A stretch of DNA of 64,000 nucleotides from a virus (IMGVR_UViG_3300043434_000266:1-64000), one strand, 5' to 3'. Numbered from the stretch's first letter, positions 13,801 through 40,211 are shown. The notes: generated by a model not told the origin, from the sequence alone. Numbers and translations: made by a program.

Positions 13801-14052
13801 GTTAATGCCTACAATGAATTTGGAGGAACAGGATCTATTACAAGAGATCCTGTATCAGGAATGAAGTCATTTACGCTTACCCAAAAGCATGTAAATCCTG
13901 AAACTGGTAAATTAGAGCAGCTTACTATGAGTGATGTTGGAGACTTTGACGTTACCGACATGTATGAAAAGATTAATCAAGAACTTGCAACAAGATACCA
14001 ACAGAACTATAACACATTAAGAACACCTGCAGAAGAACAAACAAATGAGTGA
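10879..14052 (+). CDS. Putative ejection protein with membrane-spanning Ala/Gly-rich segment
   Basis: 1057 aa; long apolar stretch AVVGAAAVDVALTTAASLAAAGTATTATGIGAPVGLALLGAAGVTMAA; lies directly upstream of the giant-gene trio. Confidence 0.65.
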   Translation: MATYLPGITDYIPKIQPFKPDLNYYANILQTKEAQYQAGYDKLSNIYGTLLNSEMLRSGNIERRDEFFTKIDNDIKKVSGMDLSKEQNVMAAQKIFQPLIDDKYIQKDIAFTKNWRGQQSRAEALKNCTDPKKCGGQWWEDGVRALNYQAEDFTKATDAESLSFANPTYTPYVNTRQKAMDFAKEMGYNVKTVTYSPDGMYRINTTNGPQIVEDLTKMFINQTLSDPQALDMYKTKAYLNRKDYVRGYAQQFGSEEAAERNYINDIINKSKETQSKQAAQAEKQIDGITEDRAIAEKSLTKFPLNETADANYIEYLESLDGNEQAASSVAASSKDALMQIEGLENMDIQTMRYRADLAEAQNLLVDQMYGAATDYAMGTMEQEIEEDKYALASFNHGLQMKEIEYRAAIDYEMEQLKFDNQKQLKLYEYALENGGLPGSESALNFDEQGMPVEPGAGGTGIPEGGAAAFAEQQVKAKMDGYNQATQNKMQFVVSQLDAIINNPNAYSKEEVSRAKKYKEELYGKAEVTSNIGQIQAQQSIGNAGNLTQAVVGAAAVDVALTTAASLAAAGTATTATGIGAPVGLALLGAAGVTMAAKGIYDFFTENNEGEEAAVVTSQGGYIDASGKMVDVKGHTDATNPKSPYNITNINKRLDAFIATEGNGLFRGNENFKKRASQLNQEIEKADAMQQSAFKKARKDNLSIRQRIVGLYGGNDGSELLIDDTGHKLSEQEFISAYTKKYSRGIDNPMLNPAAKFMMDIFEDDAADIYDKAIERYNRIYDNGEVEGLGIGINSIGQGGGLVGRGNRVFDFDPAQPGPLKAAVKEMYLKDIAPALSNRSMKGATFAFGDAASFTNQDELGDDAEAAAVISNLMKQSLGTKWKKTNNNRPVFQITRVGITQNNPDKVAVTFEVNEDFINKYDGSDKNPGITAKMSQSGDNKVSVLFDRNKVNSLFFKSIEPSNEEFLLYNNGRLDVNAYNEFGGTGSITRDPVSGMKSFTLTQKHVNPETGKLEQLTMSDVGDFDVTDMYEKINQELATRYQQNYNTLRTPAEEQTNE

Positions 14053-17000
14053 GATCTATAGATTACCTAGTGGTAAACCTTTCAGCGCAGACATTAGAAA
14101 AAATGTTGGAAATGCATTAACAGGACCCAATCCTCAACCTGCACCAAAGACTGCAGCAGAAGCTCGTCAACAAGCAATGGCGAGTATGAATAAGTTTGTA
14201 ATAGAAGCACCAAAAGCTGATACACTTAAATATGATAAACCATTTACATTTAACTCAGATGTAACTGGTCAGAACTTTGAAAGGTATTATTCTCACCCCC
14301 AATTTAAAAAGTTGGGATTTTCTCCATTTAGAGATAATGAAACTGCATATAACCAGAACTCAAGTTTATGGGATGATACTGTACGTGCAGGTAAATACTA
14401 TCCTAAGTTAGTAGGTTTAGCTGTAAGTGGTACTTTTGGTAACTGGGATGAACTATTCTCAGCAACACCTGATGTAGATAACTCCATTAAGATGGAGAGG
14501 TACATGAACATGGCGTCTTCAAGTCGTGATGGATTTGGTGCAAAAGCATTAAACTTTGGAGTCAATAGTGCATATACTGTTGGTATAATAGGATCTATTG
14601 CTGCTGAAGAAGCGGTGCTTGCAGGTATAGGTGCAACAGGTGTTGGATCTGGTGTTGCTGTAGCTGGTACAACTAAGAATATATTAAAGCTTAACAAAGC
14701 ATTTGATAGATTAGCAGATATATTCAAAGCAGGTTCTAATATTACAGAAGCTCGTAAAACGTGGGAAGCAGTTGGTAAAGTATCTAAAGCTGTATTACCA
14801 TTTCAAAATACTGCGAATCTTTTCAGACAAACGGAGAGAGCAGCAATGGGTTGGAATAAAATGGACGACTATGCAAAAGCATATCATTCATTTGGTGCAT
14901 TCTTTAGAGACTTAAGAGAAATTAACTTAGTAACCTCTGAATCAAAACTCGAAGGAGGATTTGTTCAGAACGAAGTTGCTAATGATTTGATAAAAGAATT
15001 TAGAGCAAAGAATGGTCGTGATCCTAATGATCAAGAATCTAAGAAGATGTATGATCAAGCACGTGAAGCAGGATTCTCAACTAGTTACGCTAACATGGCG
15101 GGTATCTATGCTAGTAATAAAGTAGTACTAGATAAATTATTAAAGGGTGTTCCTGTATTAGGTCAAGTAGAACACGCCGCATCTAAATCAGTCAGAGGTT
15201 CTATCGTAAAGAATGCTAACTGGTTGAAAGAAGGTAAGAATCCATTTGAAGTTCTATACGGTGCTAAGAAGTATGTAAACAAAGAGTGGTTAAAACAGAC
15301 CGCTAAGAACATACCTAAAAACGGATTACGTTATATGAGTGCTAACCTTATGGAAGGTACTCAAGAAGTTTATCAAGAAGCAACTGCAGAAGCAATGAAG
15401 CAGTATTATATTGATACTTACTACGACCCAAATCGTGCACATCAAGGACACATGATGGCATCTATTAAAAATGGTTTGAAATCTCAAATAAGTGGAAGAG
15501 GTTTAGAGACATTCTTAAGTGGTGCATTAATGGCAGGACCTATTCAAGTTGCTCAAAATGGTTTGATGCGTTTGGGTGAATACGGTAACTTAGTTAAATT
15601 AAAATCTCAAGCAAAATCATTTGACGCTGATCCTAAGAATGCTGGTAAAGAGAATCCCTATACTAAAAAGATTAATGAGTATAAAGAATGGGATACGAAA
15701 GTAGTTGATGCTCTTAATGATCTTACAAAAAATAAGAAAGAAAACTTCTCTAAACTATACAGAAACGCTAAAGAACAAAAAGATCTTGCGGATCTATATG
15801 AAGATGCTGCTTTGAATGACGATACTAAGACTGCAGTTGATACTAAAGAAGACTCTTTGTTTGCTCATATTAATACATTAAGAAGAAGTGGTACTTTAGA
15901 TTTATTCAAGGAGCAATTACAATCGCTTTCTGAATTATCAAATGAAGAACTCAATGAAGCTTTTAATGAACCCGGCGGTACAAATGTAGTAGATGGTAAA
16001 AATATAGGAGACCGTATCCAAACAACATTAAAAAGAATTGATGAGATTGATAAGCATTTAAGTGATGTAGAAAAGATCGCTAACCCTTATGATGCTCGTC
16101 AAGATTTCTTTAAATGGTTTGGATTTGAAGAAGCACGTAAAATGGTAGCTTACCATGATTACACCTATAAGCGTATTGGAGGTCGTATGACCGGTATATC
16201 TGAGAAGATACAAAATACATTAAGTTCATTGGGATCTAATCCTAACTATTCTGATATTGCTGCATTATTTAATGTTGGTAGAGAAGCTAATTTAATGGAC
16301 TCTATGGACATGGGTATGACCAGTGAGATCGATCTTATTCAAAAAGAAATTGAGGGAATAGGTGATATTACTGATCTAACATTAAAGCGTAGAAAGGATA
16401 TATTATTAGCAAAGAAAAATAGACTTCAAAATATGTCTGTTGCTGTACAAAATTATGTACAAGCTAATAAGTTAATGAACTCAAACTTATCACCTGAAGA
16501 AGTAGATGATGTAACAGAACGAGTAGCTGTTGCAGAACAATTATTATATGATGCATTTAAAGACCACCTTACAAACATAGGTGTATCTCAAGGAAAAGCT
16601 AGTGCTGAGTTTGGTATATTTAATAAGACAATTGATGAGTTGTTTGGTCAGTATAAAGATTACTGGAGACTAGAAGCGGACAAAACAAACTTTGCAAACG
16701 CAATCAATATGTTGTATAACCCAGAGTTATACGGACAAGCAGTTGATCGTTTTGCTGAAGCAGCATCACAAGCAGATATTGTTAAAGCAGAGAAAGCAAA
16801 AGAAGCGGCTCTAGCATATAAAAAGAGATATGCTACTAATGATTTCTTAAATGACCTATTGAGTCAGTATAATGTATTTGTAAGTGAGGATGAAGCAGAA
16901 GCATATCTAGCTAATAACATTGTACCTAGTAAATTCGTTAATGCTGATACAGGATACGAATTAGATCCTAGAAGAGATAAAGAAACATATGATAAGATTT

Positions 17001-20000
17001 TAGATCTTATTGATAAGTACGATGAGGTGTTCTTTGAGGAGTCTGGTCAACGTTTATTTAAACCAGCAACATTTGATGCAGGTGTGCGTATAGCAGGAAC
17101 ATCAGGTAATAAAGAGATTGCTGAGTTTGTTCCTGAGTTTGCAGAAAACGACAAGAGAACATTTTCTGACTTAGCACAAGAATTTGGATTTAGTAAAGGT
17201 AGAGCTGAGTCACAAGTAAAATTAGATACTGTACTTAATGCGATTATTAATAGTAAGTATGCTTCACAAGAACAGAAAGAACTTGCTAGAAAGCTTATTG
17301 CACTTACTGATAAAACAGATCTGATTACATTTAAACAGAACCACTATATAAACTCTACGTACGATAGCACCAATGGTATTATTGTAGACGCTCGTTATAG
17401 TTCAAAAGATTACGATGCTAAAGTGTCAGTTCCTATTGAGTATTCTATTCTCAATGGTGTAATGCAAAAAGTGATTACTGATGCATTAGCTGATCCCGCA
17501 TATGCAAGTCAGATTTCTGAACTTAGAAAACTTGCTATAGCAGCAACATCTAATGATACCGAGAAAGCTTTGTTTAAATATGGTTTAGCAAACGATAAAC
17601 AATTTGTTTCGGAGTTACTTACAAATGGTGACTTCCAAGCTTTCCTACAAAACATCGAATATCAAGGAGACAGTACAGAGATTAGTAATGAAGCTAAATC
17701 AATGTGGGGTAAATTCCTAGATATTCTAAATGATATATTTAAAGATGTACTAAAACTAAGTAAAACAGTTTACGCGGAAGCAATGACTGTTACATTAAAT
17801 AAATTAGCACAACCCAAGACAGGAACTACAACTAGTGGTCAGCAACCCACAGCTACTCCTGGAGGAGGTACCTCTGTAGATACAGATGCACAAGATGCTG
17901 AATTAATGCAGAAACTTAGAGATAAGTACGATTCTATAATTGCAGGAATGTCTGATGCTGATAAAGCAGGTATGGTATTCGATAGTTGGAGAAAAACAGA
18001 TTCTCGTGCAATAGATATTATTAAAAAGCATAAAGCAGATAAAATACGTTCACAAGCTAGTGGACAGGGTGCAGGAAGTTCTCAAGTATTTGTAGACGCT
18101 GCGACTAAGAGAAGAGCATTAACTGCTGTTGGATATACATTTGATGAGATCAACAGTATGTCTGAAGATGAAATTAATGACTTGTATTCTAGAAGAGAAG
18201 AGTTAGCAAAAGGATTTGTACCTAACTTAAATAGCGAAGACTGGGGAGAAATTGATGAGGTGATGAACGCAGCTAAGAAAAGAGTTGCTGATATGAATCT
18301 CAAGCTTACTGAAGATACAAAGAACTATGTACAATATGATGAAAACGGTCAACCTATAGAAGGTACTGAGAGAAAGCGTGTAAGTAGTGTTGTAAAAGAA
18401 CCTTTAACCGATGTTAAACCTGTAGCAAGTGCAAGAGGTAATATTATTGATGGACTTTTTAAAGATTTCTTACAAGGTAAGCTCCAATCATTTGACGCAT
18501 TTAAAGAACGCTATAAAGAACTACAAGCACTTCCAAAGAACAAAGTAGTAAACTTTTCTGAAGAAATGCTTGAAGATTTATTTGATTCTGTAAGAACAGT
18601 TCAAAAAGCTTTAAACAGTAAGGGTATTAAAGTAATAAGTGATTTTCCAATTATCAGTGGTATACTAGGTTCTGACGCAGTTGCTGGTGAAATGGATATT
18701 CTCGCTTATAATAAGAATGGTAAAATATTCATTATTGATATTAAATCAGCTTTTGCAAATAGACGATTAGGTTATGATGTAGATAATGCTTTAAGACTTG
18801 CATTAGGGGATAAGTATTCTCAGTTTTCTAAAGCAATGAAAGAGAATGACAACCTTGTCCGTAAAGCAATGGGAACATTTTCTGATCCTGCAGATAAGGC
18901 ATTGATCGAAGATACTATTAAAAAGGTATTAGAAAAGTATCCAAACGAAGAATCTGATTTCTTAGAAGGTAAAGATATTACAGTACCTATTTTCTATCCT
19001 ATATCAGACCGTGCACAACAGCTAGGATATAAAGAATTATTACGTCAGTCTACAGGACTAGAAGCTGACTTCATTAATATCTTTCCTATTACAACAGATT
19101 ATGCAAAAGCAGGAACCATTAATGGTGCTAGAATGTTACCTGAAATAGTAGGTGTAAGGACAGATGAGGATGGTAATAAAGTATTGCAAGAAAGTAATAA
19201 CTATTCTATTAGAGTTGATACTTCTAAAAGTATATATGAATTAGGAATACCTGGTGTCACACAAACCGTTACTACTTATCCTGAGAATCCAATTGCTCAA
19301 AAAGCACCTCAACCACCAGCAACCCCAACTCCTGTTTCTGATATAGAAGCTGAGATAGAAAAAAATAAAAAAGCAGATTTAGAACAATTAAAAACAATAC
19401 CTCCTGGTAACTATATTAGAGTTAACGGTAATGAAAAGGAATTACTTAAAAAGTTTAGAGAATACTTAACTGATGTTCTAGGATGGGAAAGAATGACTAT
19501 TGGGTTTTCTAATGGTAATCTTACACTTAACTACTTAGGAACTGAACTTAAAATACCTGCTTCAATTAATATACTTGGTGGTAATACTGCTATTATAGAT
19601 ATAAATGTAGAAAATGTAATTGAAACTAAATATAATGCAGAACTAGCTGCTTTAAAAGGTAAACCAACTCAACAACAAGGTGGTTCAAGTCAAACCAGAA
19701 CATACGATAACAAACCAATTGCTAAAGGTTTAAAAGGTAAAGTAATTTATATAACTCCTGATAGTTATACTACAGGGGATATGAAAACTCACTCTGAAGA
19801 CTTAGTAGCAGGTGATGATTTAGTTAATGCAGCAATCTTAGGTTTAGATCAAGAAGCTTTAAAAACTAAATTAGAGAGTTTTTCAAAAGGTAGTAGTCGT
19901 CTAGCTAATGCTGCAGGTGGATTGCTCAACTTCATAAAGAAAACAGGTATCTCTGAAAAAACATTAGATGGTAAAAATAACTTCAAATACTTATTAGCTG

Positions 20001-20932
20001 TATTACAAAGTGCTGGTGAAACAAGCGTAGCTGGAGAAATCTATGGTAATGCAATGTCAGAAGCAAGAAGACTTGCTAAAGATGGTAAGACCGTAGTATT
20101 TGATAATATCAACATACTTAAGTACGGTTCTGATTTAGACTTAGCTATTTTAAATAGTGAGTCTGATATTGCTAAGAAAGCTGTTACTACTCCTGGAGGT
20201 AAGACAGCTATTGCATTTGCTGAAAATACTTATCAAGGTACTAAGAAAAGAGTATTTACAGATAGTGCTGAAAGTATCATTACAGGAGGTGCTGTAAGTA
20301 AAACACCTAAAGCGCTTAAAGATTTAAGAGCAAGCGTTAATAAGATTACAGCTAAATCTGACTTACCACAGTTTAAGGACTTTATAAAGGCATTAAAGAG
20401 TCAAGGTGTATTAGATGATCTATTAGAAGATCAAGGTCTTACTCAAGAATCATTTGATGCTTTGATTAAACAAAAAGAAAATGAACTCTCAAACCAACTT
20501 ACTATTAATGATATCGTAAGTCTTGAAGGGGAAGTCCTTGTAAAATTCTTAAATAAAAAAGGAGAGGAAAGAATAGGTCTTGTTGTTGGAAAAACAGAAG
20601 ATAACAAACTAGAAATCAAGGATATAACTAAAGAATATACTGAACTTAATAGAGGTGACCTACTAATAGACATAGATGATTTAAGCTATGCTGGTTTGGG
20701 TACTAAAGCAAAAAGTAGTAAATTAGCAGAGAGAGAGGTTAATGAAAGAGTTTTATCAATAATTGAGTCAGAAAAAGTGGACAAAGCAGACAAAGTTACT
20801 AAAGCACAGTCAAACAAAACACAGACAGATACTGGTGCTGACATCGATGCGCAAAAAGATGACTTGGGTAAGTATGACCCGTTTGATAAAGATGCTAGAA
20901 ATAATAATAATGCCGACTTTTTAAGCTGTTAA
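14045..20932 (+). CDS. Giant virion/ejection protein 1 (TM segment, degenerate zincin, PD-(D/E)xK nuclease domain, degenerate P-loop domain)
   Basis: 2295 aa; apolar stretch VGIIGSIAA..LAGIGATGVGSGVAVAG; nuclease motif AGEMDILAY..IIDIKS..QQLGY; only Cys is the terminal residue. Confidence 0.75.
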   Translation: MSEIYRLPSGKPFSADIRKNVGNALTGPNPQPAPKTAAEARQQAMASMNKFVIEAPKADTLKYDKPFTFNSDVTGQNFERYYSHPQFKKLGFSPFRDNETAYNQNSSLWDDTVRAGKYYPKLVGLAVSGTFGNWDELFSATPDVDNSIKMERYMNMASSSRDGFGAKALNFGVNSAYTVGIIGSIAAEEAVLAGIGATGVGSGVAVAGTTKNILKLNKAFDRLADIFKAGSNITEARKTWEAVGKVSKAVLPFQNTANLFRQTERAAMGWNKMDDYAKAYHSFGAFFRDLREINLVTSESKLEGGFVQNEVANDLIKEFRAKNGRDPNDQESKKMYDQAREAGFSTSYANMAGIYASNKVVLDKLLKGVPVLGQVEHAASKSVRGSIVKNANWLKEGKNPFEVLYGAKKYVNKEWLKQTAKNIPKNGLRYMSANLMEGTQEVYQEATAEAMKQYYIDTYYDPNRAHQGHMMASIKNGLKSQISGRGLETFLSGALMAGPIQVAQNGLMRLGEYGNLVKLKSQAKSFDADPKNAGKENPYTKKINEYKEWDTKVVDALNDLTKNKKENFSKLYRNAKEQKDLADLYEDAALNDDTKTAVDTKEDSLFAHINTLRRSGTLDLFKEQLQSLSELSNEELNEAFNEPGGTNVVDGKNIGDRIQTTLKRIDEIDKHLSDVEKIANPYDARQDFFKWFGFEEARKMVAYHDYTYKRIGGRMTGISEKIQNTLSSLGSNPNYSDIAALFNVGREANLMDSMDMGMTSEIDLIQKEIEGIGDITDLTLKRRKDILLAKKNRLQNMSVAVQNYVQANKLMNSNLSPEEVDDVTERVAVAEQLLYDAFKDHLTNIGVSQGKASAEFGIFNKTIDELFGQYKDYWRLEADKTNFANAINMLYNPELYGQAVDRFAEAASQADIVKAEKAKEAALAYKKRYATNDFLNDLLSQYNVFVSEDEAEAYLANNIVPSKFVNADTGYELDPRRDKETYDKILDLIDKYDEVFFEESGQRLFKPATFDAGVRIAGTSGNKEIAEFVPEFAENDKRTFSDLAQEFGFSKGRAESQVKLDTVLNAIINSKYASQEQKELARKLIALTDKTDLITFKQNHYINSTYDSTNGIIVDARYSSKDYDAKVSVPIEYSILNGVMQKVITDALADPAYASQISELRKLAIAATSNDTEKALFKYGLANDKQFVSELLTNGDFQAFLQNIEYQGDSTEISNEAKSMWGKFLDILNDIFKDVLKLSKTVYAEAMTVTLNKLAQPKTGTTTSGQQPTATPGGGTSVDTDAQDAELMQKLRDKYDSIIAGMSDADKAGMVFDSWRKTDSRAIDIIKKHKADKIRSQASGQGAGSSQVFVDAATKRRALTAVGYTFDEINSMSEDEINDLYSRREELAKGFVPNLNSEDWGEIDEVMNAAKKRVADMNLKLTEDTKNYVQYDENGQPIEGTERKRVSSVVKEPLTDVKPVASARGNIIDGLFKDFLQGKLQSFDAFKERYKELQALPKNKVVNFSEEMLEDLFDSVRTVQKALNSKGIKVISDFPIISGILGSDAVAGEMDILAYNKNGKIFIIDIKSAFANRRLGYDVDNALRLALGDKYSQFSKAMKENDNLVRKAMGTFSDPADKALIEDTIKKVLEKYPNEESDFLEGKDITVPIFYPISDRAQQLGYKELLRQSTGLEADFINIFPITTDYAKAGTINGARMLPEIVGVRTDEDGNKVLQESNNYSIRVDTSKSIYELGIPGVTQTVTTYPENPIAQKAPQPPATPTPVSDIEAEIEKNKKADLEQLKTIPPGNYIRVNGNEKELLKKFREYLTDVLGWERMTIGFSNGNLTLNYLGTELKIPASINILGGNTAIIDINVENVIETKYNAELAALKGKPTQQQGGSSQTRTYDNKPIAKGLKGKVIYITPDSYTTGDMKTHSEDLVAGDDLVNAAILGLDQEALKTKLESFSKGSSRLANAAGGLLNFIKKTGISEKTLDGKNNFKYLLAVLQSAGETSVAGEIYGNAMSEARRLAKDGKTVVFDNINILKYGSDLDLAILNSESDIAKKAVTTPGGKTAIAFAENTYQGTKKRVFTDSAESIITGGAVSKTPKALKDLRASVNKITAKSDLPQFKDFIKALKSQGVLDDLLEDQGLTQESFDALIKQKENELSNQLTINDIVSLEGEVLVKFLNKKGEERIGLVVGKTEDNKLEIKDITKEYTELNRGDLLIDIDDLSYAGLGTKAKSSKLAEREVNERVLSIIESEKVDKADKVTKAQSNKTQTDTGADIDAQKDDLGKYDPFDKDARNNNNADFLSC

Positions 20933-20934
20933 TA

Positions 20935-29900: not shown

Positions 29901-31728
29901 ACTACTTTATATCTTCCAAAACAAGCTATATAGTTTTGATAGTGAGACCGATACATATAGATCTGCTGATATTACTGAGACTGTTGCACCTATTGCAAAA
30001 GAACAAGTTCTTAAAAGAGGAGCATTTCTTAATCCTAACACAGGTGTAATGCATGTTGATAAAGCTCAGATCATTAAAGAGTTTAAATCTAAAGCATTTA
30101 CTACACCATCATATGGCGGCGAAAGTAGATTAGCGCCGTTACCAGCATCTATATTTGATAGATATAAAACTGAGAATAGAGTAAAACTCTACTATAAGTT
30201 TGTACTAGAAAGAGAGTCTTTAAGAGATGCTTATCCATACAATGAGACTATAAACAGTTTTGAGTTCCAAAACTTCTTAGTAATGATAGGGTTGAATACT
30301 GATATACCTATGCGCTATGAAGAATTCATTCGTAACAAAGCTTTAGAAAACTTATATCTTGATGGTCCTTTATTTGGAGCAGAGTACAAGTTTAATGGTA
30401 TGACTACTGCTGTAGATAAGTTCTTAAGAATTCTTGAGACTCATCCGGAGTTAGTTACCGCATATCCTGTACTTGATATTATAGGAACTGTTAAGTCTGG
30501 TTCACATAGATTCTTCAAACTTAACGATAGAATTTCTGATGGAACTGTACTTACTGCATATAAAGATCAGATGGCAATCCTTGCGGATCCGGGTCAGATT
30601 AAAGTAAAAAATACTGAGGAAAACTTATACATCAGTCAATTCTTTGCAAAATTAAATACCATAGGATATCTGCAAGCAGGTAACAATAAGAACTCTGAAT
30701 TGTATATGATGTCTATATTGGATATGAAACCAATCAGTAGCTATGTTCAGAACACTATAAATGATGTTATGAATAGTCCTAAGTTGGATGGTGTGTTGGA
30801 AGATTTTGAAAGTAAGTTTACCACATCATTTGCAAGACGTAAGTCATTTGCATTTACAAACTATGCGTTTAATGCACCTTATACAGCAACTGATAAAGCA
30901 ACAGTAGAAGATCAACCATTACTGAAGTATATAAGAAACGGAAAGGTTAAAACTGGAAGTATATTCATTAATGAAGAAACAGGAGAGATTGAAGATGTCT
31001 ATAAGTATAACGAGTCTATGTTTGAAACTACTAGTAAAGTAGTAGCTAAAGATGATACTGAGTTAACAAAGAGAAACTATAAGATCACTGAAACTGATGT
31101 ACAGGCATTATTTCAGATTAATCCTGAAGCAACGTATGTATTTGAAGATTCTTATCCTAAAGTAACTTTAAAGGAAGATGGTTCTTTAAACATTGGTCAA
31201 AGACCAACTAATCCTACTAGAATTGAGCAAGAAGCATTTCGCGCAGGTTTAGCAACAGGAAACAGTTTTGCAATTCCTATTACAAAGCAAGATGGTTCTA
31301 TACCAGCAGTTGAAAAAAATGCGGTACCCAAGGAGCTGATTGACATGTACATTCAAGAACTAGTGAATTTAAGAGATAGTGGAAAAACTATCATATTCCC
31401 TTCAGAAGGTATAGGTAATAAACTATTAGGATTCTTTAAAAACAGCTTAGGTAACTTAGAAATGAGAAAAGAAGGAGCGAAGAATATAGATCTGTACTTA
31501 TATTTGTCTAAGAAACTTCTAGAGAACTTCGGATATAGAAATCCTAAAATGGAAATGATCACTAAGAACTTTACACCTGAGTTACTTGAGGGTGCTCAAA
31601 CAGGACTAGAGTTCATACAGCAGTTCTATATAAACAAGTCAGAGAGTTTAGGGTTAAGTGAACCACTTCAAACTCTAACAGACAAAGAGGTTAATGATTA
31701 TATTAATAAATGTAAAGGTATTTCGTAA
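20935..31728 (+). CDS. Virion-packaged two-barrel (crAss/phi14:2 gp66-type) DNA-dependent RNA polymerase with N-terminal zincin domain
   Basis: 3597 aa; GARIPTQGPNS (~27292) and catalytic GGDFDIDKL (27409-27423); DGEAWISFDAYR and KRVSG motifs; HESWH..EEHLAE zincin at ~23068. Confidence 0.9.
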   Translation: MSIICDPSGEWSISREDIFKINRKVAGMLAEKIEKNSKIDLGKFINAIFDEVVTATGDQQRALAVARHIPFAIELSKQVFPDKIRVPLHKNKLLDSAALEDVSVSFTESLDNVATFLNNYRDSLKPKVRDTAGITNSSAAVQPKTKIDVLDYVFVPDDVLTTTGQEVNDERDLRWYYNFLKYLGEQNIYPNADGTINYFGKTLQVSIMTGLSIPVDKLYPYERVKPNIEKMKTNQIFIGFTDTNGDFVYFDDNYNLTDDTGAFIYFPLRTVPKVISEQNGKRIFDIDESVRENRIQPIASIVANRRLAGENTNEELVRDQINQNYNDIKDITDYLLSKGNYKKKLKLNLNRISRGFIFRVSGTEGRKRIDSITNLSDFNPVILDSNEAKGMVKAAFYVTGVDEPIPFSMADFPKELAEKTADLLLNDVYYDGNLITSTDKSRLISQYLGFNLNDKTGPEGTVGFMYSPTTGEILINSKPLSTDKAQAKNEIVDYLTRDISIPTADKEIAFKNKLFFNQRFVNDNFTDFSLSPVSEGFALTTNQDVTYVDWVKDNAYVYAKTTNGEIREENGYIAFEVPIDTLYIARQKMTDAQIKEFKAKQESKTVKPNSVLENNASPSSPTNLADLLMRRDMTGFDVSATPEQIEKAKEDYDAKVITFRDKNGKVVQKKLTDLIPYEVMFNIANSNGNVRATWTRAGITLFQGSDYTDLYHESWHGFTQWFLTGDQKLKLYNEVKNSGETIRYYNNGWKTMNSSKLDFNNPDHILYAEEHLAEKFREYSLGKYTPASAVEKSMFKKIWEAIKALFGFGSPEEVLAPSGLVAKAFQDLKAGNLVDYTFDQANVRFNRLNSGITALKSSTSPIKNLDITSSLMVTEGITDVISASVDELNKEYGTNKFTIGIFENDTVKKEVLRRAKSKLIDKLNELEAKVDLATGFEKDRLDKSVQTLSWAIDNFDIDDVKSGTLKYYNDRTGFFTLSTGAKVIDTETAIDGQTEENTDAPASREGVTTDEGTEFSAVDRMSDSMRYILESLFERVEPTKDNPEGYVYNDLGFRKAVPFKTAFAVIASATANKLTPEEMYKSLQTASDTKTRNKTQNYKFLFIKQLLAKLGDPRNPNAQSLTGQNLISEFFFTFRLDKQTGIQVTAEREGVSLTIKVGTSDSAEKAFGRTLENRFQTGKVKSKYITKNKNNEYEINLKGILEDYPSSTAANASPVSFLRALGIDITDTDAVINFLKKQNAITNIYQTVLDRSKLIDKPTTSLVPERASGLFNDKSSVWNTLLEAESKYSGFNAGYMFKNVNGDPQSEMNNPSTAGNQIHLINAAKTYAELISDPRTAHYSTERNSWVKTSVMFQKLFGKKLTIKNTEDGRPVSINVQSLLGTQALNVEDDIRSLISGMKSAASDVQTAYLRDYFMTLLNGASEAFKHADKSSTYVASLDAGGVYYYVNPKTFTSNIGRNKANEIFIGYIASELERIKKVSSKKLIGEQADDIILGGKPGSYETLKTRGSEFVVFHDIIKDELKEELIKLDVNTVEDFLDLVGKDASLKDKLVNALNNYFDQLALEDYTMLKSFGVTKAENFFKTIKNRFPELAVLSDQDVLKATSEAFTYNAFIHKMEMSTLIYGDPALYTHDKDEHMKRVSGFFATGRIGRTDSSMNAFIAANAGSYHTSQWFKQSGFAAPTNTLSYQSTILPIAVGEDPVDRSVYLDEMIKIAKEQGIPESDYAAYEEMKSADGEAWISFDAYRALEIRFRNWNPQKELLYNKIINNEKTDSAEVLKTFYPVKKLQYSGPLDITNFSALAFHKYSLIPLIPSVIKDSRLEVLHNKMVSEGIAYTVLQSGSKIVSIGKNGTLDSFYDKNYNPKFADPNFKFTKNNIFVDYLKEQLVTKDKFKEEIDFPSQIRKLIVLGMDPESPLIKTYLSNIDKMTKVAETELKMELGYKDVKSRKKGEPALDLKKLLEYVKSSLTAQDLAEQSIDFIEIGDDGKLVRFLDLSEDPSKIEKIIGALVNKRINKQPVYGEQYIQGSSVGFEKFSKPTQIDLDKYGEWGLPFYRMSKDGKSVSAMKIKIALHGKFKNLLKLNHTDNKVIGTIERLNEMLKDENWLNTGEHRQMVTLIGARIPTQGPNSMEFMEVFEFLPEEAGNIMILPLEIVAKSGGDFDIDKLVTMIPGITDNEGVIEIEKPKSSRKLLNTIIEEKYELINEIKEIRKKYLKSYLTPELQEQIDSLEKEQSDAYQEFLSQWTNNYYVGGATEKYYSRISNAKQAIDSIYEQFDQDLNDQYNAEVEPVKEKLRQLNREENFYKPKAYQQDVLNSMRAILSRPDNYINLTRPNGTGIYTEGSEDAQFNNKSIVEFLAEFNRVYNKKFTKTNPLGKKKISPTRIMENGYNISKAAALFTGKMGVGMLATGNTFHASAVLADVYMSPFREEEKLVNKVPVTYKLIQQLLIPHNFKIVDGEKVIDFSKPKDADLKNYVRDVVSELMNGYLDVAKDEWVYDINAVKQLEPEFEFMLLAGVPVKTAALMLAQPLVRQYLNKFKEYSSPYALFNPEDNLSNTNFAKRQALIDVLLKNDMSSVFPMDDTGEPNTFLNTPALLETLRAQYLQGDLKSNRNALILEKARLEGLEEVTVGTEYEIYFDKSDSVSILTVQSITPKKNEYSVVLKNEKSGKEYTYTVNKFGEGKTMRFEEPVTFIDVTSEINRLSKQIADADIELEEAPQGEFPNLVIGDKVTETLNRRRDESGNIKKIEVPGEFYKVEVPGHSDIRLYLSKNDYGTWVVEEFYSGLPVGSGSTPSIALADAEKKLKENLSNIKKGDKGYEIAKEIKADVKKLTPPKGKAKSVKPQESPEILFNNEKLIDNLRKPGSSLSKQHFAHFAEIIYMASQLTNLKMGIRFDTLKNTSYFDADQQEKGFEATLGKAFPADVVNRLIDKTVLKSFRTGAFLKEVIGTLLPVRANSKVNNAIGSIIKGMSDLSMDDKEKLASQFNTDLLLYIFQNKLYSFDSETDTYRSADITETVAPIAKEQVLKRGAFLNPNTGVMHVDKAQIIKEFKSKAFTTPSYGGESRLAPLPASIFDRYKTENRVKLYYKFVLERESLRDAYPYNETINSFEFQNFLVMIGLNTDIPMRYEEFIRNKALENLYLDGPLFGAEYKFNGMTTAVDKFLRILETHPELVTAYPVLDIIGTVKSGSHRFFKLNDRISDGTVLTAYKDQMAILADPGQIKVKNTEENLYISQFFAKLNTIGYLQAGNNKNSELYMMSILDMKPISSYVQNTINDVMNSPKLDGVLEDFESKFTTSFARRKSFAFTNYAFNAPYTATDKATVEDQPLLKYIRNGKVKTGSIFINEETGEIEDVYKYNESMFETTSKVVAKDDTELTKRNYKITETDVQALFQINPEATYVFEDSYPKVTLKEDGSLNIGQRPTNPTRIEQEAFRAGLATGNSFAIPITKQDGSIPAVEKNAVPKELIDMYIQELVNLRDSGKTIIFPSEGIGNKLLGFFKNSLGNLEMRKEGAKNIDLYLYLSKKLLENFGYRNPKMEMITKNFTPELLEGAQTGLEFIQQFYINKSESLGLSEPLQTLTDKEVNDYINKCKGIS

Positions 31729-34700
31729 TGATAAATGCATGTCCCGGGGGACCAGAATGGAACAAACTTGTTAAAGCTGTAGGTGAATTTGAAGCTTATA
31801 AGGATTACATAGAGAACGGTGAAACAATCCGTTCTGTTGATGAAGTTTTAAAAAGCAAACCTTTTCTTGAAAAGGTAAAACGTAATGAAGCTGATACAAA
31901 AGCTATAGAAGAAAATCTTCTATCAGGGTTCCTTAAAGATTTTGGAATAACGGTAACAGAATACGAATCATTAAAAGATGATCTTGGATTAAATGGATAT
32001 ACCGCAACAGACCTTATTACTAAAACTGTTGTTCATCAACCAGGGGAGTCGATATTACCTGAAGCAGCATATATTGCTTATTCTATTTTAGGTAAACAGA
32101 ATAATAAAATCAGATCCGAGCTAAGATATTTGATCAGAAAGTGGGACAAGTACGAAGAGAGATTTAACTTCCATAAAGAGTTATTGAAGAAAAATAAAGT
32201 GTCCATTAAGGATTCAAAAGAATGGAAAAACAATATCCGAGATAAGGTTATTATTGACTTCTTAAAAGATAATTTGTATCAATACTACAGTAATCCTACT
32301 GAATTTAAAAAGAATTTGGATACTAAGTGGACTCAAGAAGACTTTACTTTATGGGAGAAGATCATTAGAGCTATTGAAAACTTTTTAAGTAGAACCTTTG
32401 GATATAAGGAAGAAGAGTATATAACTCAGTTAAAAGACACAGGTTCTGCAATAGCAAGTGAACTACTTACACAAAACTATGAATACTTCAAGTATAATCT
32501 TTCAGAAGATCAGATTAGAAAGTACTATAGTAGTACAATAGAATCAGATCCTAAAGCAAAAGATATTGTTACAGTATTACAAAAGATCGGTTTAGTTTTA
32601 ACAGGATCATTAGCATTAAGAAGAGCTGGTGAAGTATACAGAACAGCAGAAGAGAGTGTGCATGATATAGATTGGATTGTACCATACCTCATGAACATGT
32701 CCGGATATAATGCTAAGCTAACTGAAGCAATGTTGAGAGGTGATGAACCTACTCTATTCAGAGAAGATGTTGAAAAACTAAAATTGGATAAGCGTTCTAA
32801 AAACGCTTTGAATCAAATTGCTCAGATGGATTGGTTTCTTAAAGTACAAGAAGCATATCCTAATATAAGATTTACAAACGGATTTTATGGAAAAGAGCAT
32901 GCTAATCTAGAAAGTTTTACAGCGCAAGCTGCAATAGACGGTGAATTTTATGATAGCGATGGTTATCATGAAGAAGAATTTGCTACTTATAGAAAGGATC
33001 CTTATACAGGTGCACCAGTAAAAGAAAAGATTAAGAGAACTATAAAGCACCAAAAGGGGGATTACGTTAAGGGTACCGGTTATCAAATAGATTTCTTTGT
33101 AAGACTAGAAGAGCATCAGGAAGAACATGATGGTTATTTCTTATTATGGAAAGAAATCATGTTAGCTAAACTAAGAATGGGTAGAGATAAAGATTTCATT
33201 GATTGGAAAGCATTTCAACCATACTTAGCATCTAAGGATAAGTTTAATTTCTTCTATGAAGGATTCCGTCATATAAATTTTGAGAGTTCGCAAGACTTCT
33301 TTTTAGAAGACATGACTCTTAGCAAGAAAATAAAGTATGAGGATATTGATACTATTGTTAACTATATCGTTGATACAATTCCTGGAGTTAAAACTTATGC
33401 TGAAAAGGTAGGATTCACACCTGTTCAAACAAACATGCGTAAAGCTAACTCTGTTGTAGAAGCAATGGTTCAGCAATTGTCATCTAGATTAAACATCCCT
33501 TATCAATTTGTTACAGCTGCTGAAGCACGTGAAATTCTAGAAGGTGCTGGTAAACCATTCACAAACCAAGCGGGTTTTTATGTCGGAGGTACAGTATATC
33601 TAGTGTCTAGTGATTTGAATCTAGAGACAGCAATACACGAATTTAGTCACCCTTTTATAAGAGCGATTCAACAAGAGAATCCTCAACTATTTGAAAAATT
33701 AGTTAGTGATCTATCTTTAACAGAAGAGGGTCAAAAGATCATTAACATAACAAAACAGTTATACGGAGAAGACGATCCTTTATATAAGGAGGAGTTACTA
33801 GTTCGAGCATTAACTCGAGCAGCTAGAATGAAACTTACTGGAGCACTTAAGCAGTATAAAAACAAAAGCTTTAAAAGTGTAATCGATAGAGTATTGTATG
33901 CTATAAAAAAGGCATTCAGAAAATACTTTGGTAAGTCTGTTGATGTTTCTGATTTAGATGTAGACACAAGTATTGAAGATCTATCTGAAATGTTGTTGTC
34001 TGCAGATCAAATTACCTTTGATGTTGAAGCGGTTAGTCAAGAAGAACTTGTAGCAGAAGAACGCCGTGTCAAAGAAGAAATAGATCAGTTTCTTAATATT
34101 GGTAATACCGATAGCGGTGCTATTGCTATTAAGACAATGATTAGTGATTTTACTCGTATATCAAGAGATCACATCGACAAGTTAGTAAAGAACCGTAATC
34201 TTAAAGATATAGCGGAGATCCTTAAATCAGGTTATGATGAATCTGACTATAAGAGTATTATTCGAAATTTAAGTAACTATCAAGAAGATCTACTAGAAAA
34301 AATAGAGGACGCTTCAGAAAGACTAGAATACGAATCTCAAAGAGCAACTGCATTAGTTAACTCTATATACAGAATTAAATATATGAGTGCCAAGATGGTA
34401 CTGCATATGAAAGACTTACTTGCTGAGGACATCTCTCCTGATACTGTAAGAAAGTTTTACTATTATAGTAAACTTGTAGATGATTGGTCTAAGATTATTG
34501 CAAAGACGCGTCGAATGATGACGAATGAAGATGTGATAACAGGACCAATGGCAACTGTTGTTTCAGAGATTGAAAGTTTATTGAAGACAGCAAAAGACTT
34601 AGATGTTGATATGAGCATGCGAGGTTCTGTTGATTTGTTAACAGAGACTATCAAACCTTTATCAGATAAAGTTAAGACTTACTATGAGGATATTATTAAA

Positions 34701-37700
34701 GCGCTTAAAAAGAAAGGTGCTCCTGATAGAATCATAGAACGTTATGAGAGAGAGTATAAAGAAGCAAGCTTGGAAGAGAAAGATATTAGAGAATGGTTAT
34801 CTGGGCAACGTGGTGATACACATGCTATTAGTGCATGGTTAGAGTCATTCATGAACATTCAAGATCCTGTTGTATTTGGTCTTGCTAAATACTTGAATGA
34901 TAATATCAGTGATGTATTGACTAAAGCACAACAGCGTCAGAACAGCAGAACAATGATATTGGAACCAATGCTTAAAGCAGCAGGGTTGGATCTAAAAGAT
35001 TACCAAGCGCTAAACAAGTTGGTTACCTACAAAGAGTTTGAACCTATTTATAATTCTGAAGGAAAGTATGAGGAGAGAGAACGTATGGCATACATACACC
35101 ATGTAAAAGGATATCAAAAAGAGGTTGGTAAGCTAAACGATCAAATTCGTGAAGCAGAAAAGAAATCACAAGAAACTGGTGACACTACAGAACTTGACGC
35201 ACTTAGAGCACAATTAAAACAATTGTTACATGATCATTTCTATAATGACTATGACTCTAGGGTCTTTGCATCTGAATCGTTATTTACTCAAGATGAAATA
35301 GGTCAGAAAGCATATACTAAAAGAAGCGCTATCTTAAACAAGATCAATAACCTAGATGCAGGAATTCATCAAAAGACAGAGTTATATGATTCTGACTTTC
35401 AAGAATTGCGAGACATGCTTTGGAAAGAGTACCAACATTTATATTCATTCTCATACGAGGATGGTAGTATGAAAGTACCTGGTACAGAGGATTATGAAAT
35501 TACAAAACGTTTAAGAGATCATAGAGAAAGAACACGTGAATTTTATGAGTGGGTTCCTATTAAGGGTATGTTCCAAGGATCATTGAGATCATATGAGCAA
35601 CAATTAAGAGCACAAAATCTTACTGATAAACAATTTGAAGAAAAGCGTAAACAATGGATTGATGAGAATACTAAAGTAAAAATCAAACCTAAGTTTTGGG
35701 AGGATGTGCAAGATATCATTGGAAGACTTAAGAAATTAAAAGAATCACTTCCTGTAAATATCGGAGCACAAATGAAGTTGGATGAGTACTTCAAAGAACT
35801 TAATGACCAGATGAGTGCGTATAGAGACGAAGACGGTCAACCTGAAGCTAACTCAATGAGTGAAGAAAAACTTAGACGTATTGCTGAACTTGATGAACTT
35901 ATTTCTGAAGAAAGAGATAATCTAAGTAAGTATACAGGGTTGTCAGAAGAGGAGGAACTTTTTGTAGCAGACTTTCAAAATAAAGCACAAGCATACATTG
36001 CAAGCAAGTTTGATCCTCTTAACATGAGTATGGATCAGTACACTGAACTATTTGAAGAGTTTAAAAATCTTAATCCAGCAGATGCCGCAGACTATGAGTC
36101 TTTGATGGATAAAAGAGTTAGTGCTGAAGATGACCCGATGCTAAAAGAAGAACTAACTTACTTATTGGCAGAGTTAAATGCAATAAGAAGTAAAGTACCA
36201 ACCGATCAATATATTGATAAACTCAATTCATTTGTTAAAACATCTGATGATGGTAATGGTATAAACAAGAGTACAATAAAAGAACGTTTTGGAGTAGAAG
36301 CTTTTGATAAAAGTATTATATCAAACATGCTAGAAGATACAGGATTCCTACAGAAATTATTTATAGAGAGTCCTGAATTCAAAGTTTGGTTTAATCAAAA
36401 TCACCAACAACGTATTTTTGAATACACGTATGGTCCTAACGCAGGTGATGAAAAAGTAAGCTATTCACCATCAAGTGCTTGGAGAGTTACTCGTCCAAAC
36501 CAAGAAGAGTACTATGAAACCACAGAACTTTATGATGAGGCTGGTAATGTTATTGGTAGTATACAAGGTGTACCTGTAAGTAAATATTGGAGACGTCAAC
36601 TTAAATCTGAGTACAGAACCCAAAGAGTTACGTATAAGGAAGCGTTAGAAATGGGTGACCTTACTAAAGCAACAGTTGATGAACAAGGTCGTTGGTTACC
36701 AAAACCCGACAGTAAATATAGGAACGAAGACTACTATAGATTACAGCGTACAAATAAACCGGCATTTGATTTACTTACTCAGATTCATAAATTCCATCAA
36801 GAAAACCAAGACGGATTAAATGTAAATTCCAGATTGGGTATGTTTATGGCAAGGTACCGTAAAGATAACTATGAGTCTTTAGTATCAGGAGAAGCAAAGG
36901 ATAAAGTAACATCAATGATTAAAAACTTCAAGTCATCTTTCAGAAAAGCTGCTGATGATTTTGAAGAAGGTTATAATGCAGAAAACCAGGTAACCTATGT
37001 CAACCTAGATATGTTTGATACTCAAACTTCGGGTATCCCTATTACAGGTAGAGCAGACTTAGATCTAGAAGAAACATCTGAGGATGTTATCTCTAGCTTA
37101 ATGCGTTACATGCTTTCTGCAGAAAGACAAAAGAAACTTATTGAGATTAACCCTAACGTTAGAGCAATACAGAGTATTGTAAATAACGAAGAGAAAGGGG
37201 GTATCAAGGATATGACTAAAGCTAACAAGCAAGATTACCTGACTCAAGGTATCACAAACTTTGCTACTAAGAAAGGTAAATCAGTTCGTGCTCAAGTCAT
37301 TAATGCAATGATCGAAAGAGAGCTTGAAGGTAAACAGTTAGTAGGTGTAACCGAGAATCTTGCATGGGCAAACAAACTTGCAGGTAACTTAATGAAGATG
37401 TCATCATTTGCATTCTTTGCATTTGACGCAGCTTCCGCACTTAAGAACGCATTCAACGCGCAGTTCCAGTCTATGATTGCAGCTGCTGGTGGTGACGGTT
37501 TAGATATGGCGAGTATTACAAAGGGTGCTTATTGGGCACAGTTTGCATCAAGTCAGGTATCATTTGAGATTTATAAGTTCGGACCTAAGTCTTTGAATGT
37601 TCAATTAGTAGAGATGTTTGATCCGGAAGCTACACGTTTTGATAAAGACGCTGGTAGAAAGTTTGCGGAAAGTTCTACAAGAACATTGTCAAGAGACGTT

Positions 37701-38747
37701 GCAAACATGCAATGGTTTACAAACTTCCGTGCTTGGACGCAGATGAATGCTACCTTGCAATTATTTGGAGGTATGATGAACCATCAAAAAGTAAAGCAAA
37801 CTGTAAATGGTGTTACTAGAGAGATTCCTTACATTGAAGCATGGGAAGTTAAGGACGGACAACTAACTGTAAAACAAGGAGTTGACCAAGAATGGAACAT
37901 TGGGGGTAAGAAGTTTACAGAAATGAGAAACAAAGTTCAAGCTGCTAACAAGAACTTGAACGGTGCACTATCCAAGATGGATCAACCAATGGCAAACAGA
38001 TACTTGTTGTATAGAATGATTGCTTATATGAAGACGTGGTTTACTCGTCAGTTCATGTCTCGTTTCCAATTTAGAGGAAACTGGAAAGAACCTCGAGCAC
38101 GTTGGGATATTCAAGCAAACGATTTACCTATAGGTTACTACATCCAAGGACTAGATACTTTAAGAAGAGGTATCATGAGTATGGGTGCTGACTTTAAATA
38201 TATGACACCTAGAGAGATCGCCGCTGCTAAGAAAGTAGCAATGGAAATGGGTATCATTATATTAGGAAGCGTTCTCATCAAACTATTGTTTAATTATGAT
38301 GACGACGATGAGGATCGTTTCAACAAACTAAGACAGAAATCAGGACCACTTCCAGGATTATTTGTAGCGGATACTCCATTTGAGTTTAATGCTACAGGAT
38401 ACTTAGAGAACCAATCATTGTTCTTAGCTAAGTCAACTATGAACGAACTTCAAGCAATGACTCCTGTGTTCGGTTACGATGACTATATTAACATGCTTAA
38501 GTTAGAATCTGTAGCTGTAAGTAGTACTGTAGTAAATATGGGTAAGACTCTACAAACAATAACCCAACTTGTAGCACAAGATCCTGGAGCACGTTACAAA
38601 CGTGACGCAGGTCCATACGAGTGGCAACAAGCAGGAGAGTTAAAGAGTATTAACTATTTGCTAAAAAGTGTAGGTATTTCTGGTAAGATGATTGATCCGG
38701 TAAACGCACTTAGAGGGTTCGAAAGTGCACAAAATCGTTTCAAGTAA
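31728..38747 (+). CDS. Giant virion/ejection protein 3 (nucleotidyltransferase domain, zincin HEFSH, C-terminal helical/TM region)
   Basis: 2339 aa; N-terminus CPGGPEWNKLV; LTGSLAL..HDIDW..QIDFF..K..RDKD; HEFSH..KEEL; TM-like MGIIILGSVLIKLLF followed by DDDDED. Confidence 0.75.
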   Translation: MINACPGGPEWNKLVKAVGEFEAYKDYIENGETIRSVDEVLKSKPFLEKVKRNEADTKAIEENLLSGFLKDFGITVTEYESLKDDLGLNGYTATDLITKTVVHQPGESILPEAAYIAYSILGKQNNKIRSELRYLIRKWDKYEERFNFHKELLKKNKVSIKDSKEWKNNIRDKVIIDFLKDNLYQYYSNPTEFKKNLDTKWTQEDFTLWEKIIRAIENFLSRTFGYKEEEYITQLKDTGSAIASELLTQNYEYFKYNLSEDQIRKYYSSTIESDPKAKDIVTVLQKIGLVLTGSLALRRAGEVYRTAEESVHDIDWIVPYLMNMSGYNAKLTEAMLRGDEPTLFREDVEKLKLDKRSKNALNQIAQMDWFLKVQEAYPNIRFTNGFYGKEHANLESFTAQAAIDGEFYDSDGYHEEEFATYRKDPYTGAPVKEKIKRTIKHQKGDYVKGTGYQIDFFVRLEEHQEEHDGYFLLWKEIMLAKLRMGRDKDFIDWKAFQPYLASKDKFNFFYEGFRHINFESSQDFFLEDMTLSKKIKYEDIDTIVNYIVDTIPGVKTYAEKVGFTPVQTNMRKANSVVEAMVQQLSSRLNIPYQFVTAAEAREILEGAGKPFTNQAGFYVGGTVYLVSSDLNLETAIHEFSHPFIRAIQQENPQLFEKLVSDLSLTEEGQKIINITKQLYGEDDPLYKEELLVRALTRAARMKLTGALKQYKNKSFKSVIDRVLYAIKKAFRKYFGKSVDVSDLDVDTSIEDLSEMLLSADQITFDVEAVSQEELVAEERRVKEEIDQFLNIGNTDSGAIAIKTMISDFTRISRDHIDKLVKNRNLKDIAEILKSGYDESDYKSIIRNLSNYQEDLLEKIEDASERLEYESQRATALVNSIYRIKYMSAKMVLHMKDLLAEDISPDTVRKFYYYSKLVDDWSKIIAKTRRMMTNEDVITGPMATVVSEIESLLKTAKDLDVDMSMRGSVDLLTETIKPLSDKVKTYYEDIIKALKKKGAPDRIIERYEREYKEASLEEKDIREWLSGQRGDTHAISAWLESFMNIQDPVVFGLAKYLNDNISDVLTKAQQRQNSRTMILEPMLKAAGLDLKDYQALNKLVTYKEFEPIYNSEGKYEERERMAYIHHVKGYQKEVGKLNDQIREAEKKSQETGDTTELDALRAQLKQLLHDHFYNDYDSRVFASESLFTQDEIGQKAYTKRSAILNKINNLDAGIHQKTELYDSDFQELRDMLWKEYQHLYSFSYEDGSMKVPGTEDYEITKRLRDHRERTREFYEWVPIKGMFQGSLRSYEQQLRAQNLTDKQFEEKRKQWIDENTKVKIKPKFWEDVQDIIGRLKKLKESLPVNIGAQMKLDEYFKELNDQMSAYRDEDGQPEANSMSEEKLRRIAELDELISEERDNLSKYTGLSEEEELFVADFQNKAQAYIASKFDPLNMSMDQYTELFEEFKNLNPADAADYESLMDKRVSAEDDPMLKEELTYLLAELNAIRSKVPTDQYIDKLNSFVKTSDDGNGINKSTIKERFGVEAFDKSIISNMLEDTGFLQKLFIESPEFKVWFNQNHQQRIFEYTYGPNAGDEKVSYSPSSAWRVTRPNQEEYYETTELYDEAGNVIGSIQGVPVSKYWRRQLKSEYRTQRVTYKEALEMGDLTKATVDEQGRWLPKPDSKYRNEDYYRLQRTNKPAFDLLTQIHKFHQENQDGLNVNSRLGMFMARYRKDNYESLVSGEAKDKVTSMIKNFKSSFRKAADDFEEGYNAENQVTYVNLDMFDTQTSGIPITGRADLDLEETSEDVISSLMRYMLSAERQKKLIEINPNVRAIQSIVNNEEKGGIKDMTKANKQDYLTQGITNFATKKGKSVRAQVINAMIERELEGKQLVGVTENLAWANKLAGNLMKMSSFAFFAFDAASALKNAFNAQFQSMIAAAGGDGLDMASITKGAYWAQFASSQVSFEIYKFGPKSLNVQLVEMFDPEATRFDKDAGRKFAESSTRTLSRDVANMQWFTNFRAWTQMNATLQLFGGMMNHQKVKQTVNGVTREIPYIEAWEVKDGQLTVKQGVDQEWNIGGKKFTEMRNKVQAANKNLNGALSKMDQPMANRYLLYRMIAYMKTWFTRQFMSRFQFRGNWKEPRARWDIQANDLPIGYYIQGLDTLRRGIMSMGADFKYMTPREIAAAKKVAMEMGIIILGSVLIKLLFNYDDDDEDRFNKLRQKSGPLPGLFVADTPFEFNATGYLENQSLFLAKSTMNELQAMTPVFGYDDYINMLKLESVAVSSTVVNMGKTLQTITQLVAQDPGARYKRDAGPYEWQQAGELKSINYLLKSVGISGKMIDPVNALRGFESAQNRFK

Positions 38748-39246: not shown

Positions 39247-39666
39247 ATGGCATTCATAGATATCTTCAACTTTAAAAAGTATTTTAGAAAACCTAGTGAT
39301 GCACAGGTTGCTAGATACGGTCATGTTAATGCGTTGTATGATGACCTAGTTAATAGTTTTGCAATCGAAACGGCTGAATATACTAAAACAGGTCCTACAG
39401 TATCAGTAACTACAAAATCTGGTATTATCTCTGTAACAGAGACATTAAATACAACTGATTACATTCAATTTAGGATCGTTAATGAAGACATTACTGCAAA
39501 TACTGTTGTTCTTGTAACTGCCTACAATCCTGATTTAGGTACAAGTATATTACATGCTGCTCCCTGGGTGGGTCCTAGTCCTGATGGTGGTCGTTATGCA
39601 GTCATTACAAACCTTGGTGCAGACACAGTAGAAAATATTAAATTGTTATATTACATAGTATCCTAA
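39247..39666 (+). CDS. Small virion protein, paralog B
   Basis: Shares MAFIDIFNFKKYFxKxSDAQVARYGHVNALYDDL with the previous ORF. Confidence 0.7.
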   Translation: MAFIDIFNFKKYFRKPSDAQVARYGHVNALYDDLVNSFAIETAEYTKTGPTVSVTTKSGIISVTETLNTTDYIQFRIVNEDITANTVVLVTAYNPDLGTSILHAAPWVGPSPDGGRYAVITNLGADTVENIKLLYYIVS

Positions 39667-40211
39667 TGAAAAAGTATACAACAAAAGAACTTAGAGCTGA
39701 GTTTGAAAAGCACGGATATGATTTTCCAACTTTTCATTTAGTAGGTATTAGATCTAACGCTAATGCTAAGAATCAGTTTGATGATCTTATTGGTGTAATA
39801 GAAAGAGATACTATTACTTGGTATACTTGCACAACTAATCCTGGAACACACTGGTTACAGAATTTGCTTAACCCAAAAGGTGCAGCTATGTTAGTACCCG
39901 GACAATGGGATGATTGCTGGAAGATAGGATTGCATCAAGGTAAATACGAAGCACTTACCCAATGTGCACCCGTTACTGTATATAGAGACGGAGATAAAGA
40001 TGATGTAGCTGAAGAATCTAAAGTAACTGAGACAGGTATCTTTGGTATTAATATCCACCGTGCTAATCCTAGTTTAGTATCTAAGCTTATAGATAAATGG
40101 TCTGCCGGATGTCAAGTTCTTAATGACCCCAAACAGTTTGCAGAGTTACTAGGTAAATGTAAAAAATCTGGATTTAAGAAGTTTACATACACCCTATTAA
40201 AAGAATTCTAA
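39666..40211 (+). CDS. Putative endolysin, L,D-transpeptidase(YkuD)-like peptidase
   Basis: GINIHRA..WSAGCQV His/Cys motif; adjacent to holin-like and spanin-like genes. Confidence 0.75.
   Translation: MKKYTTKELRAEFEKHGYDFPTFHLVGIRSNANAKNQFDDLIGVIERDTITWYTCTTNPGTHWLQNLLNPKGAAMLVPGQWDDCWKIGLHQGKYEALTQCAPVTVYRDGDKDDVAEESKVTETGIFGINIHRANPSLVSKLIDKWSAGCQVLNDPKQFAELLGKCKKSGFKKFTYTLLKEF

Follow-up and report, generated by a model that had tools for sequence, protein, structure and literature searches.

The window analysed here is a stretch of viral DNA of 64,000 nucleotides (IMGVR_UViG_3300043434_000266:1-64000), part of a 79-kb virus record that is ~65% complete. DNA of this virus has been found in freshwater and lake metagenomes in several studies. 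Three giant open reading frames (ORFs), here named A, B and C, lie within the plus-strand structural arm of the window, each abutting or overlapping the next (Table 1). Translation with table 11 gives 8231 residues that contain just four cysteines, every one of them at an end facing the next protein, and neither the N-terminus of A nor the C-terminus of C carries one. An initial annotation, made by a model from the sequence alone, had placed these cysteines at the last residue of A, at positions 5 and 3593 of B and at position 5 of C. Translation and codon reading bear this out exactly, and no internal cysteine had been overlooked. The same annotation put the mass of the three proteins at ~0.9 MDa, in agreement with a computed sum of 931 kDa. 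Between zero and four residues follow the C-terminal cysteines in the window proteins. Other ORFs of the structural arm are likewise poor in cysteine, and most minus-strand genes of the window have 0.6-3%.

Table 1. Coordinates of the giant genes, their cysteine codons and motifs in the window, and of nuclease genes at junctions in related loci (alignments A1, A2 and A3 are described in the text)
Feature	Position	Strand	Remark
Gene A	14045..20932	+	2295 residues, 254 kDa; first chain link
Cys2295 codon (TGT) of A	20927..20929	+	Sole cysteine of A and its last residue
Gene B	20935..31728	+	3597 residues, 407 kDa; crAss-type virion RNA polymerase
Cys5 codon (TGC) of B	20947..20949	+	Invariant column among 11 polymerases, phi14:2 gp66 and crAss001 gp50 included
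HESWH (HExxH) motif of B	23068..23082	+	N-terminal part of B; kept in relatives
DFDID catalytic motif of B	27409..27423	+	Two-barrel RNA polymerase; residues 2159-2163
Cys3593 codon (TGT) of B	31711..31713	+	Fifth residue from the C-terminus; sole invariant column of alignment A2
Gene C	31728..38747	+	2339 residues, 271 kDa; last chain link
Cys5 codon (TGT) of C	31740..31742	+	Sole cysteine of C; sole invariant column of alignment A3
HEFSH (HExxH) motif of C	33636..33650	+	Zincin-type; residue 637
GIY-YIG-type nuclease genes	L070 278-763, 10024-10641; L071 19120-19713; L068 12361-13050

No significant PHROGs or Pfam family was found for A, B, C or their neighbours, and a phmmer search with B against PDB sequences gave no match. 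B is distantly related to gp66, the virion RNA polymerase of Cellulophaga phage phi14:2 (tblastn E 4e-18), and its DFDxD-type catalytic motif is invariant in alignment A1, which comprises 11 polymerases including those of phi14:2 and crAss001. A C-family profile that includes the window's own C finds phi14:2 gp65 at 5.7e-48 and crAss001 gp49 at 3e-78, along with DAC15 gp62, cr118_1 gp15 and the C-terminal halves of p-crAssphage gp44 and crAss002 gp33. The A-family profile matches crAss001 gp47 at 4.8e-17, with no match to phi14:2 gp67 or DAC15 gp61 at 1e-3. The blocks gp67-gp66-gp65 of phi14:2 (gp66 structure 6VR4) and gp47-gp50-gp49 of crAss001 are homologous to that of the window and have the same terminal cysteines, but identity is ~19-23% and the window proteins are much longer. 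Homologues of the cargo proteins have been detected by mass spectrometry in virions of phi14:2 and crAss001 (annotation notes; PMC10172136). By homology, B and C belong to the crAss-like RNA-polymerase cargo block, and A probably does; the presence of the block in virions is known for the relatives only.

The conservation of the cysteines was assessed in relatives of the window. Two scans of viral contigs yielded 92 loci, representing 63 lineages when B is clustered at 70% identity. The 165 chain proteins of these lineages total 406,754 residues with 236 cysteines, 208 of which lie within 12 residues of an N-terminus or 25 of a C-terminus, regions that make up 1.4% of the residues. Internal cysteines number 28 of the 236, or ~7 per 100,000 residues. 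Both facing ends bear a cysteine at all 102 scorable junctions between consecutive chain proteins, so that the mapping across orthologous giant-gene sets proposed in the initial annotation finds the expected enrichment at facing termini. The outer ends lack cysteine throughout (0/42 complete chain N-termini, 0/55 chain C-termini and 0/40 C-termini of upstream neighbours). At the junctions, the N-terminal cysteine occupies positions 3-7 and the C-terminal one positions -1 to -9, with two cases at -19 and -21; TGT is used 173 times and TGC 31 times. Among 92 complete control ORFs from the same loci, an N-terminal cysteine is found in 9% and a C-terminal one in 22%, compared with 100% at junctions. 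Alignments of the last 300 residues of B (A2) and the first 400 of C (A3), made with 52 relatives, each have a single invariant column, which is the cysteine, at a mean column identity of 11%, and A1 has 62 invariant columns, C5 and C3593 included. The cysteine pattern is therefore real, order-wide and under strong selection.

The same arrangement is seen in cultured and gut crassviruses. In phi14:2, gp67 ends in its sole cysteine, gp66 (2180 residues) has Cys3 and Cys2179, and gp65 has Cys3. In crAss001, cysteines are found at -3 in gp47, at 5 and -9 in gp50 and at 5 in gp49, and the arrangement in DAC15 is similar. Gene A is on the opposite strand in both crAss001 and DAC15 and the junction rule is still obeyed, which excludes a nucleotide signal at the gene boundary. 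Where A and B are fused, as in FpV4, cr118_1 and cr7_1, a single cysteine pair is present at the B/C junction; where B and C are fused, as in p-crAssphage, crAss002 and cr271_1, the single pair is at the A/B junction. Taken together, these cases show that the rule holds in Steigviridae, Intestiviridae, Suoliviridae and unclassified aquatic relatives.

Gene fusions and splits show the cysteines to come and go with the junctions. A and B are fused in nine lineages (3764-4686 residues). In these the N-terminal cysteine is absent and the upstream neighbour has none, and the C-terminal cysteine and its partner on C are retained. The A-family profile matches the N-terminal part in four of the nine, confirming the fusion there. 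A tree built from the polymerase core shows at least three switches between the split and fused states and five origins of an extra link with both terminal cysteines. Links of 583 residues (L092) and 396 residues (L071) align collinearly with the N-terminal 560 and 350 residues, respectively, of unsplit C proteins, in which the site of the split has no cysteine; the window's C is among the matches of these C-derived extra links (E 2.6e-24). GIY-YIG homing-endonuclease genes sit exactly at junctions between cysteine-tipped genes in L070, L071 and L068 (Table 1). In L071, the piece downstream of the nuclease gene is extended at its N-terminus by ~170 residues, which include GTSGSGKST, a Walker A-like motif.

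Three sets of apparent exceptions could be dismissed. In L013 and L089 the polymerase is broken at about 15920-16075, without cysteine at the L013 break, but all homologous residues are encoded and a homologue aligns free of gaps across two frames, identifying the break as a frameshift. The polymerase ORF of L007 is similarly frameshifted at about 18420-18590, again with all homologous residues encoded; B is truncated there and intact in the close relative L012. These frameshifts may be assembly errors or real defects. Finally, a group I intron (18772-19090; RF00028, 80 bits, E 8e-21) splits the catalytic GSDFDID-type motif of the cr108_1 (L099) polymerase gene, which is annotated in its record as two separate coding sequences, and no cysteine is present at the break. 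The cysteine rule is thus of use in annotation, since it distinguishes frameshifts and introns from true protein boundaries and flags wrong starts. The annotated start of crAss002 gp33 (L095, 11191-11295), for example, seems to be ~32 codons too early, as the internal Met33 gives MSC..., like p-crAssphage gp44 (MSC...) and in keeping with a cysteine at position 3.

What might such facing cysteines do? A precedent comes from the cyanopodophage A4 (Anabaena phage A-4L), in which a Cys1715-Cys5 disulfide was seen by electron cryo-microscopy (cryo-EM) in the packaged pre-ejectosome (PMC12002296; gp26 PDB 9K3A). The sole cysteine of A4 gp27 (1717 residues) is at -3 and that of the next gene product, gp26 (1114 residues), is at 5. 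Consecutive ejection-protein genes thus encode a lone cysteine facing a lone cysteine, as do A, B and C. The systems differ in that A4 has one such junction and no RNA polymerase, whereas crassvirus chains have two to four, and in that the A4 work does not offer the disulfide as a general rule. The initial annotation knew of no description of such a mechanism: the A4 junction has been published, but in the literature searched we likewise found no description for Crassvirales.

Since the same cysteine signature in A4 is a disulfide observed by cryo-EM, this is the likeliest chemistry here, and we put the probability that intermolecular disulfides join the cargo proteins head to tail, as A-S-S-B-S-S-C, at roughly 65%. 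The initial annotation had proposed this chain; its pairing logic stands, with cysteines confined to facing ends, lost on fusion and gained on splitting, and the disulfide itself is the most probable form of the link by analogy. On this reading A, B and C would be packed within the capsid as cargo, and the lone C-terminal cysteine of each protein would bond to the cysteine at positions 3-7 of the next. The three gene products would then act as one thread of ~931 kDa, equivalent to the fused polyproteins encoded by other crassviruses, and the near-absence of further cysteines would prevent mispairing. Bond formation in this phage would probably follow packaging, or release to oxic fresh water. 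The thread might leave through the tail link by link, with stoichiometry and order fixed and, as the initial annotation had suggested, with the first protein perhaps pulling the others along, and the reducing host cytoplasm would part the links and free the polymerase. FpV4 gp32, cr118_1 gp14, p-crAssphage gp44 and crAss002 gp33 each combine these modules, in unchanged order, in a single polypeptide, where a peptide bond joins them and the cysteine pair is absent at the fused junction; the fused polyprotein is the covalent state that disulfides would imitate. Other inter-subunit disulfides are present in crAss001 virions (PMC10172136).

Complex prediction of facing termini had also been suggested in the initial annotation. 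Modelled together from their respective alignments, the last 300 residues of B and the first 400 of C gave a score of 0.43 against 0.00 for the best control, a weak indication to which we attach little weight. Of 80 solved complexes, 58 reach the mark used for such predictions, as do 2 of 110 mismatched pairs; seven of the 80 and both mismatches reach it at scores of 0.60 or less. Contact agreement in the runs was at least 12%, and the predicted local distance difference test (pLDDT) score of the partner at least 46.

Several points weigh against disulfides. None has so far been observed in a crassvirus cargo protein, and the terminal cysteines go unmentioned in the phi14:2 gp66 preprint, the crAss001 atlas (PMC10172136) and a 2026 paper on N4. 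The A4 precedent is, by sequence comparison, a functional analogy and not a case of shared family, since neither gp26 nor gp27 is detectably homologous to B or C: profiles of the B C-terminus and C N-terminus aligned to A4 gp27 and gp26 with hhalign give probabilities of 0.3% and 0.15%. Phages are assembled within a cytoplasm that is reducing, and the gut relatives live without oxygen, so that neither setting would readily provide a time and place for oxidation. No thioredoxin-fold gene is found in the 79-kb record, although at its ~65% completeness this counts for little. Thioredoxin-domain proteins are encoded by p-crAssphage (L017 26936-27214) and cr108_1 (L099 30049-30318) and may be relevant to whether the cargo cysteines are oxidized or reduced. 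Lastly, the sequence data, taken alone, would also fit a link of a different type joining these two cysteines.

One such link, raised already in the initial annotation, is a metal ion shared through the thiolates of the facing pair. Two adjacent thiolates could bind Zn, Cu or Fe, and the logic of splits and fusions fits any type of link between facing ends. Each end, however, offers one cysteine, histidine is almost absent near it (0.2-0.6%) and no second ligand position is conserved, whereas the matching A4 signature is a disulfide. We therefore consider metal coordination quite unlikely. Pairing of like with like (A-A, B-B, C-C), giving dimers or polymers instead of an A-B-C chain, is decidedly unlikely. 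It draws some plausibility from the possibility that crAss001 packs several copies of each cargo protein, so that like ends could meet (PMC10172136), but it fails to explain the joint loss of cysteines on fusion, their joint gain at splits and the cysteine-free outer ends. Where A and B are fused, moreover, the sole partner within the chain for the C-terminal cysteine is the N-terminal cysteine of C, and the A4 bond joins different proteins.

We also give little chance to the view that the cysteines tether the ends to a third partner (the portal or an inner-capsid protein, a lipid or a DNA end) or bear some other modification. Terminal cysteines are often sites of acylation or anchoring, and the pairing itself has so far been seen in sequence only. 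But independent anchors would not vanish at fused junctions or arise pairwise at new ones, nor would B need two cysteines, and A and C one each, at mirrored positions. Cysteine-mediated ligation to one polypeptide, by intein-free splicing or a reaction like native chemical ligation, is very improbable. A cysteine near a C-terminus followed by another near the next N-terminus does resemble extein/intein chemistry; however, A, B and C have no Pfam match to a Hint or intein domain, and no Hint-domain halves, as in split inteins, flank the junctions. In addition, 0-8 residues lie beyond the C-terminal cysteine in most lineages (up to 20 in two), the N-terminal cysteine is preceded by 2-6 residues and so is not N-terminal, and virion proteomics of phi14:2 and crAss001 lists separate proteins. 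That the pattern is a by-product of boundary signals such as translational coupling, as the abutting or overlapping genes of the window might suggest, or of chance in cysteine-poor proteins, has a probability close to nil, given the opposite-strand gene A, the ~550-nucleotide gaps and inserted nuclease genes that part other pairs, the variable cysteine positions, the use of both codons and the far lower frequencies in control ORFs.

Crassviruses outnumber all other phages in the human gut and are also common in water, and we know of no account of how they deliver ~1 MDa of protein, polymerase included, through a narrow tail. A conserved head-to-tail tether would explain fixed stoichiometry, sequential delivery and the interchangeability of split and fused gene forms. 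A wider proposal, itself rather doubtful, is that of a modular, redox-cleavable train throughout Crassvirales, with cysteines as couplers. The order of links would set the order of ejection, and reduction in the cytoplasm would uncouple them and switch on the polymerase. The couplers would also let homing-endonuclease genes split giant genes, and modules insert, with the chain unbroken. Were this true, introns and inteins would be joined by a third route by which a mobile gene can reside harmlessly inside an essential gene.

Giant polymerases ejected from the virion, with strong suppression of cysteine, are known also from Schitoviridae. In N4 gp50-gp52 and DEV gp71-gp73 the suppression has been explained by passage through the periplasm (PMC11445570). 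These proteins are essentially cysteine-free, whereas the window proteins keep four invariant terminal cysteines and lack internal ones, and the 2026 N4 paper describes the N4-like polymerase and phi14:2 gp66 as fundamentally distinct. Suppression itself had been described before in N4-like phages (PMC11445570); the new point is that precisely the junction cysteines are retained amid it.

Some further observations concern the chain and its surroundings. HExxH motifs are present in both B (HESWH) and C (HEFSH), pointing to two possible zincin-like modules in the chain. In cr7_1 (L097, 4533-26704), the giant genes contain 60-148 in-frame stops under table 11, suggestive of stop-codon recoding, and are richer in internal cysteines; the junction pair, a last residue and Cys3, is still kept. 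Two upstream virion proteins, p-crAssphage gp47 (L017, 1546-4119) and crAss002 gp30 (L095, 496-2169), have a lone cysteine near the C-terminus (-2 and -8, respectively), and the gene products that follow them have no N-terminal cysteine. Upstream of A, a 1057-residue protein (10879-14052, plus strand) has two cysteines only, C128 and C134, in a CX5C arrangement whose positions recur in distant relatives in L009 (978 residues) and L088 (937 residues); the two residues may form a small metal-binding or disulfide site within a virion protein. Downstream of the chain lies a 181-residue ORF (39666-40211, plus strand) with five cysteines and no Pfam match, and an ORF of the same length follows the chain in many distant loci.

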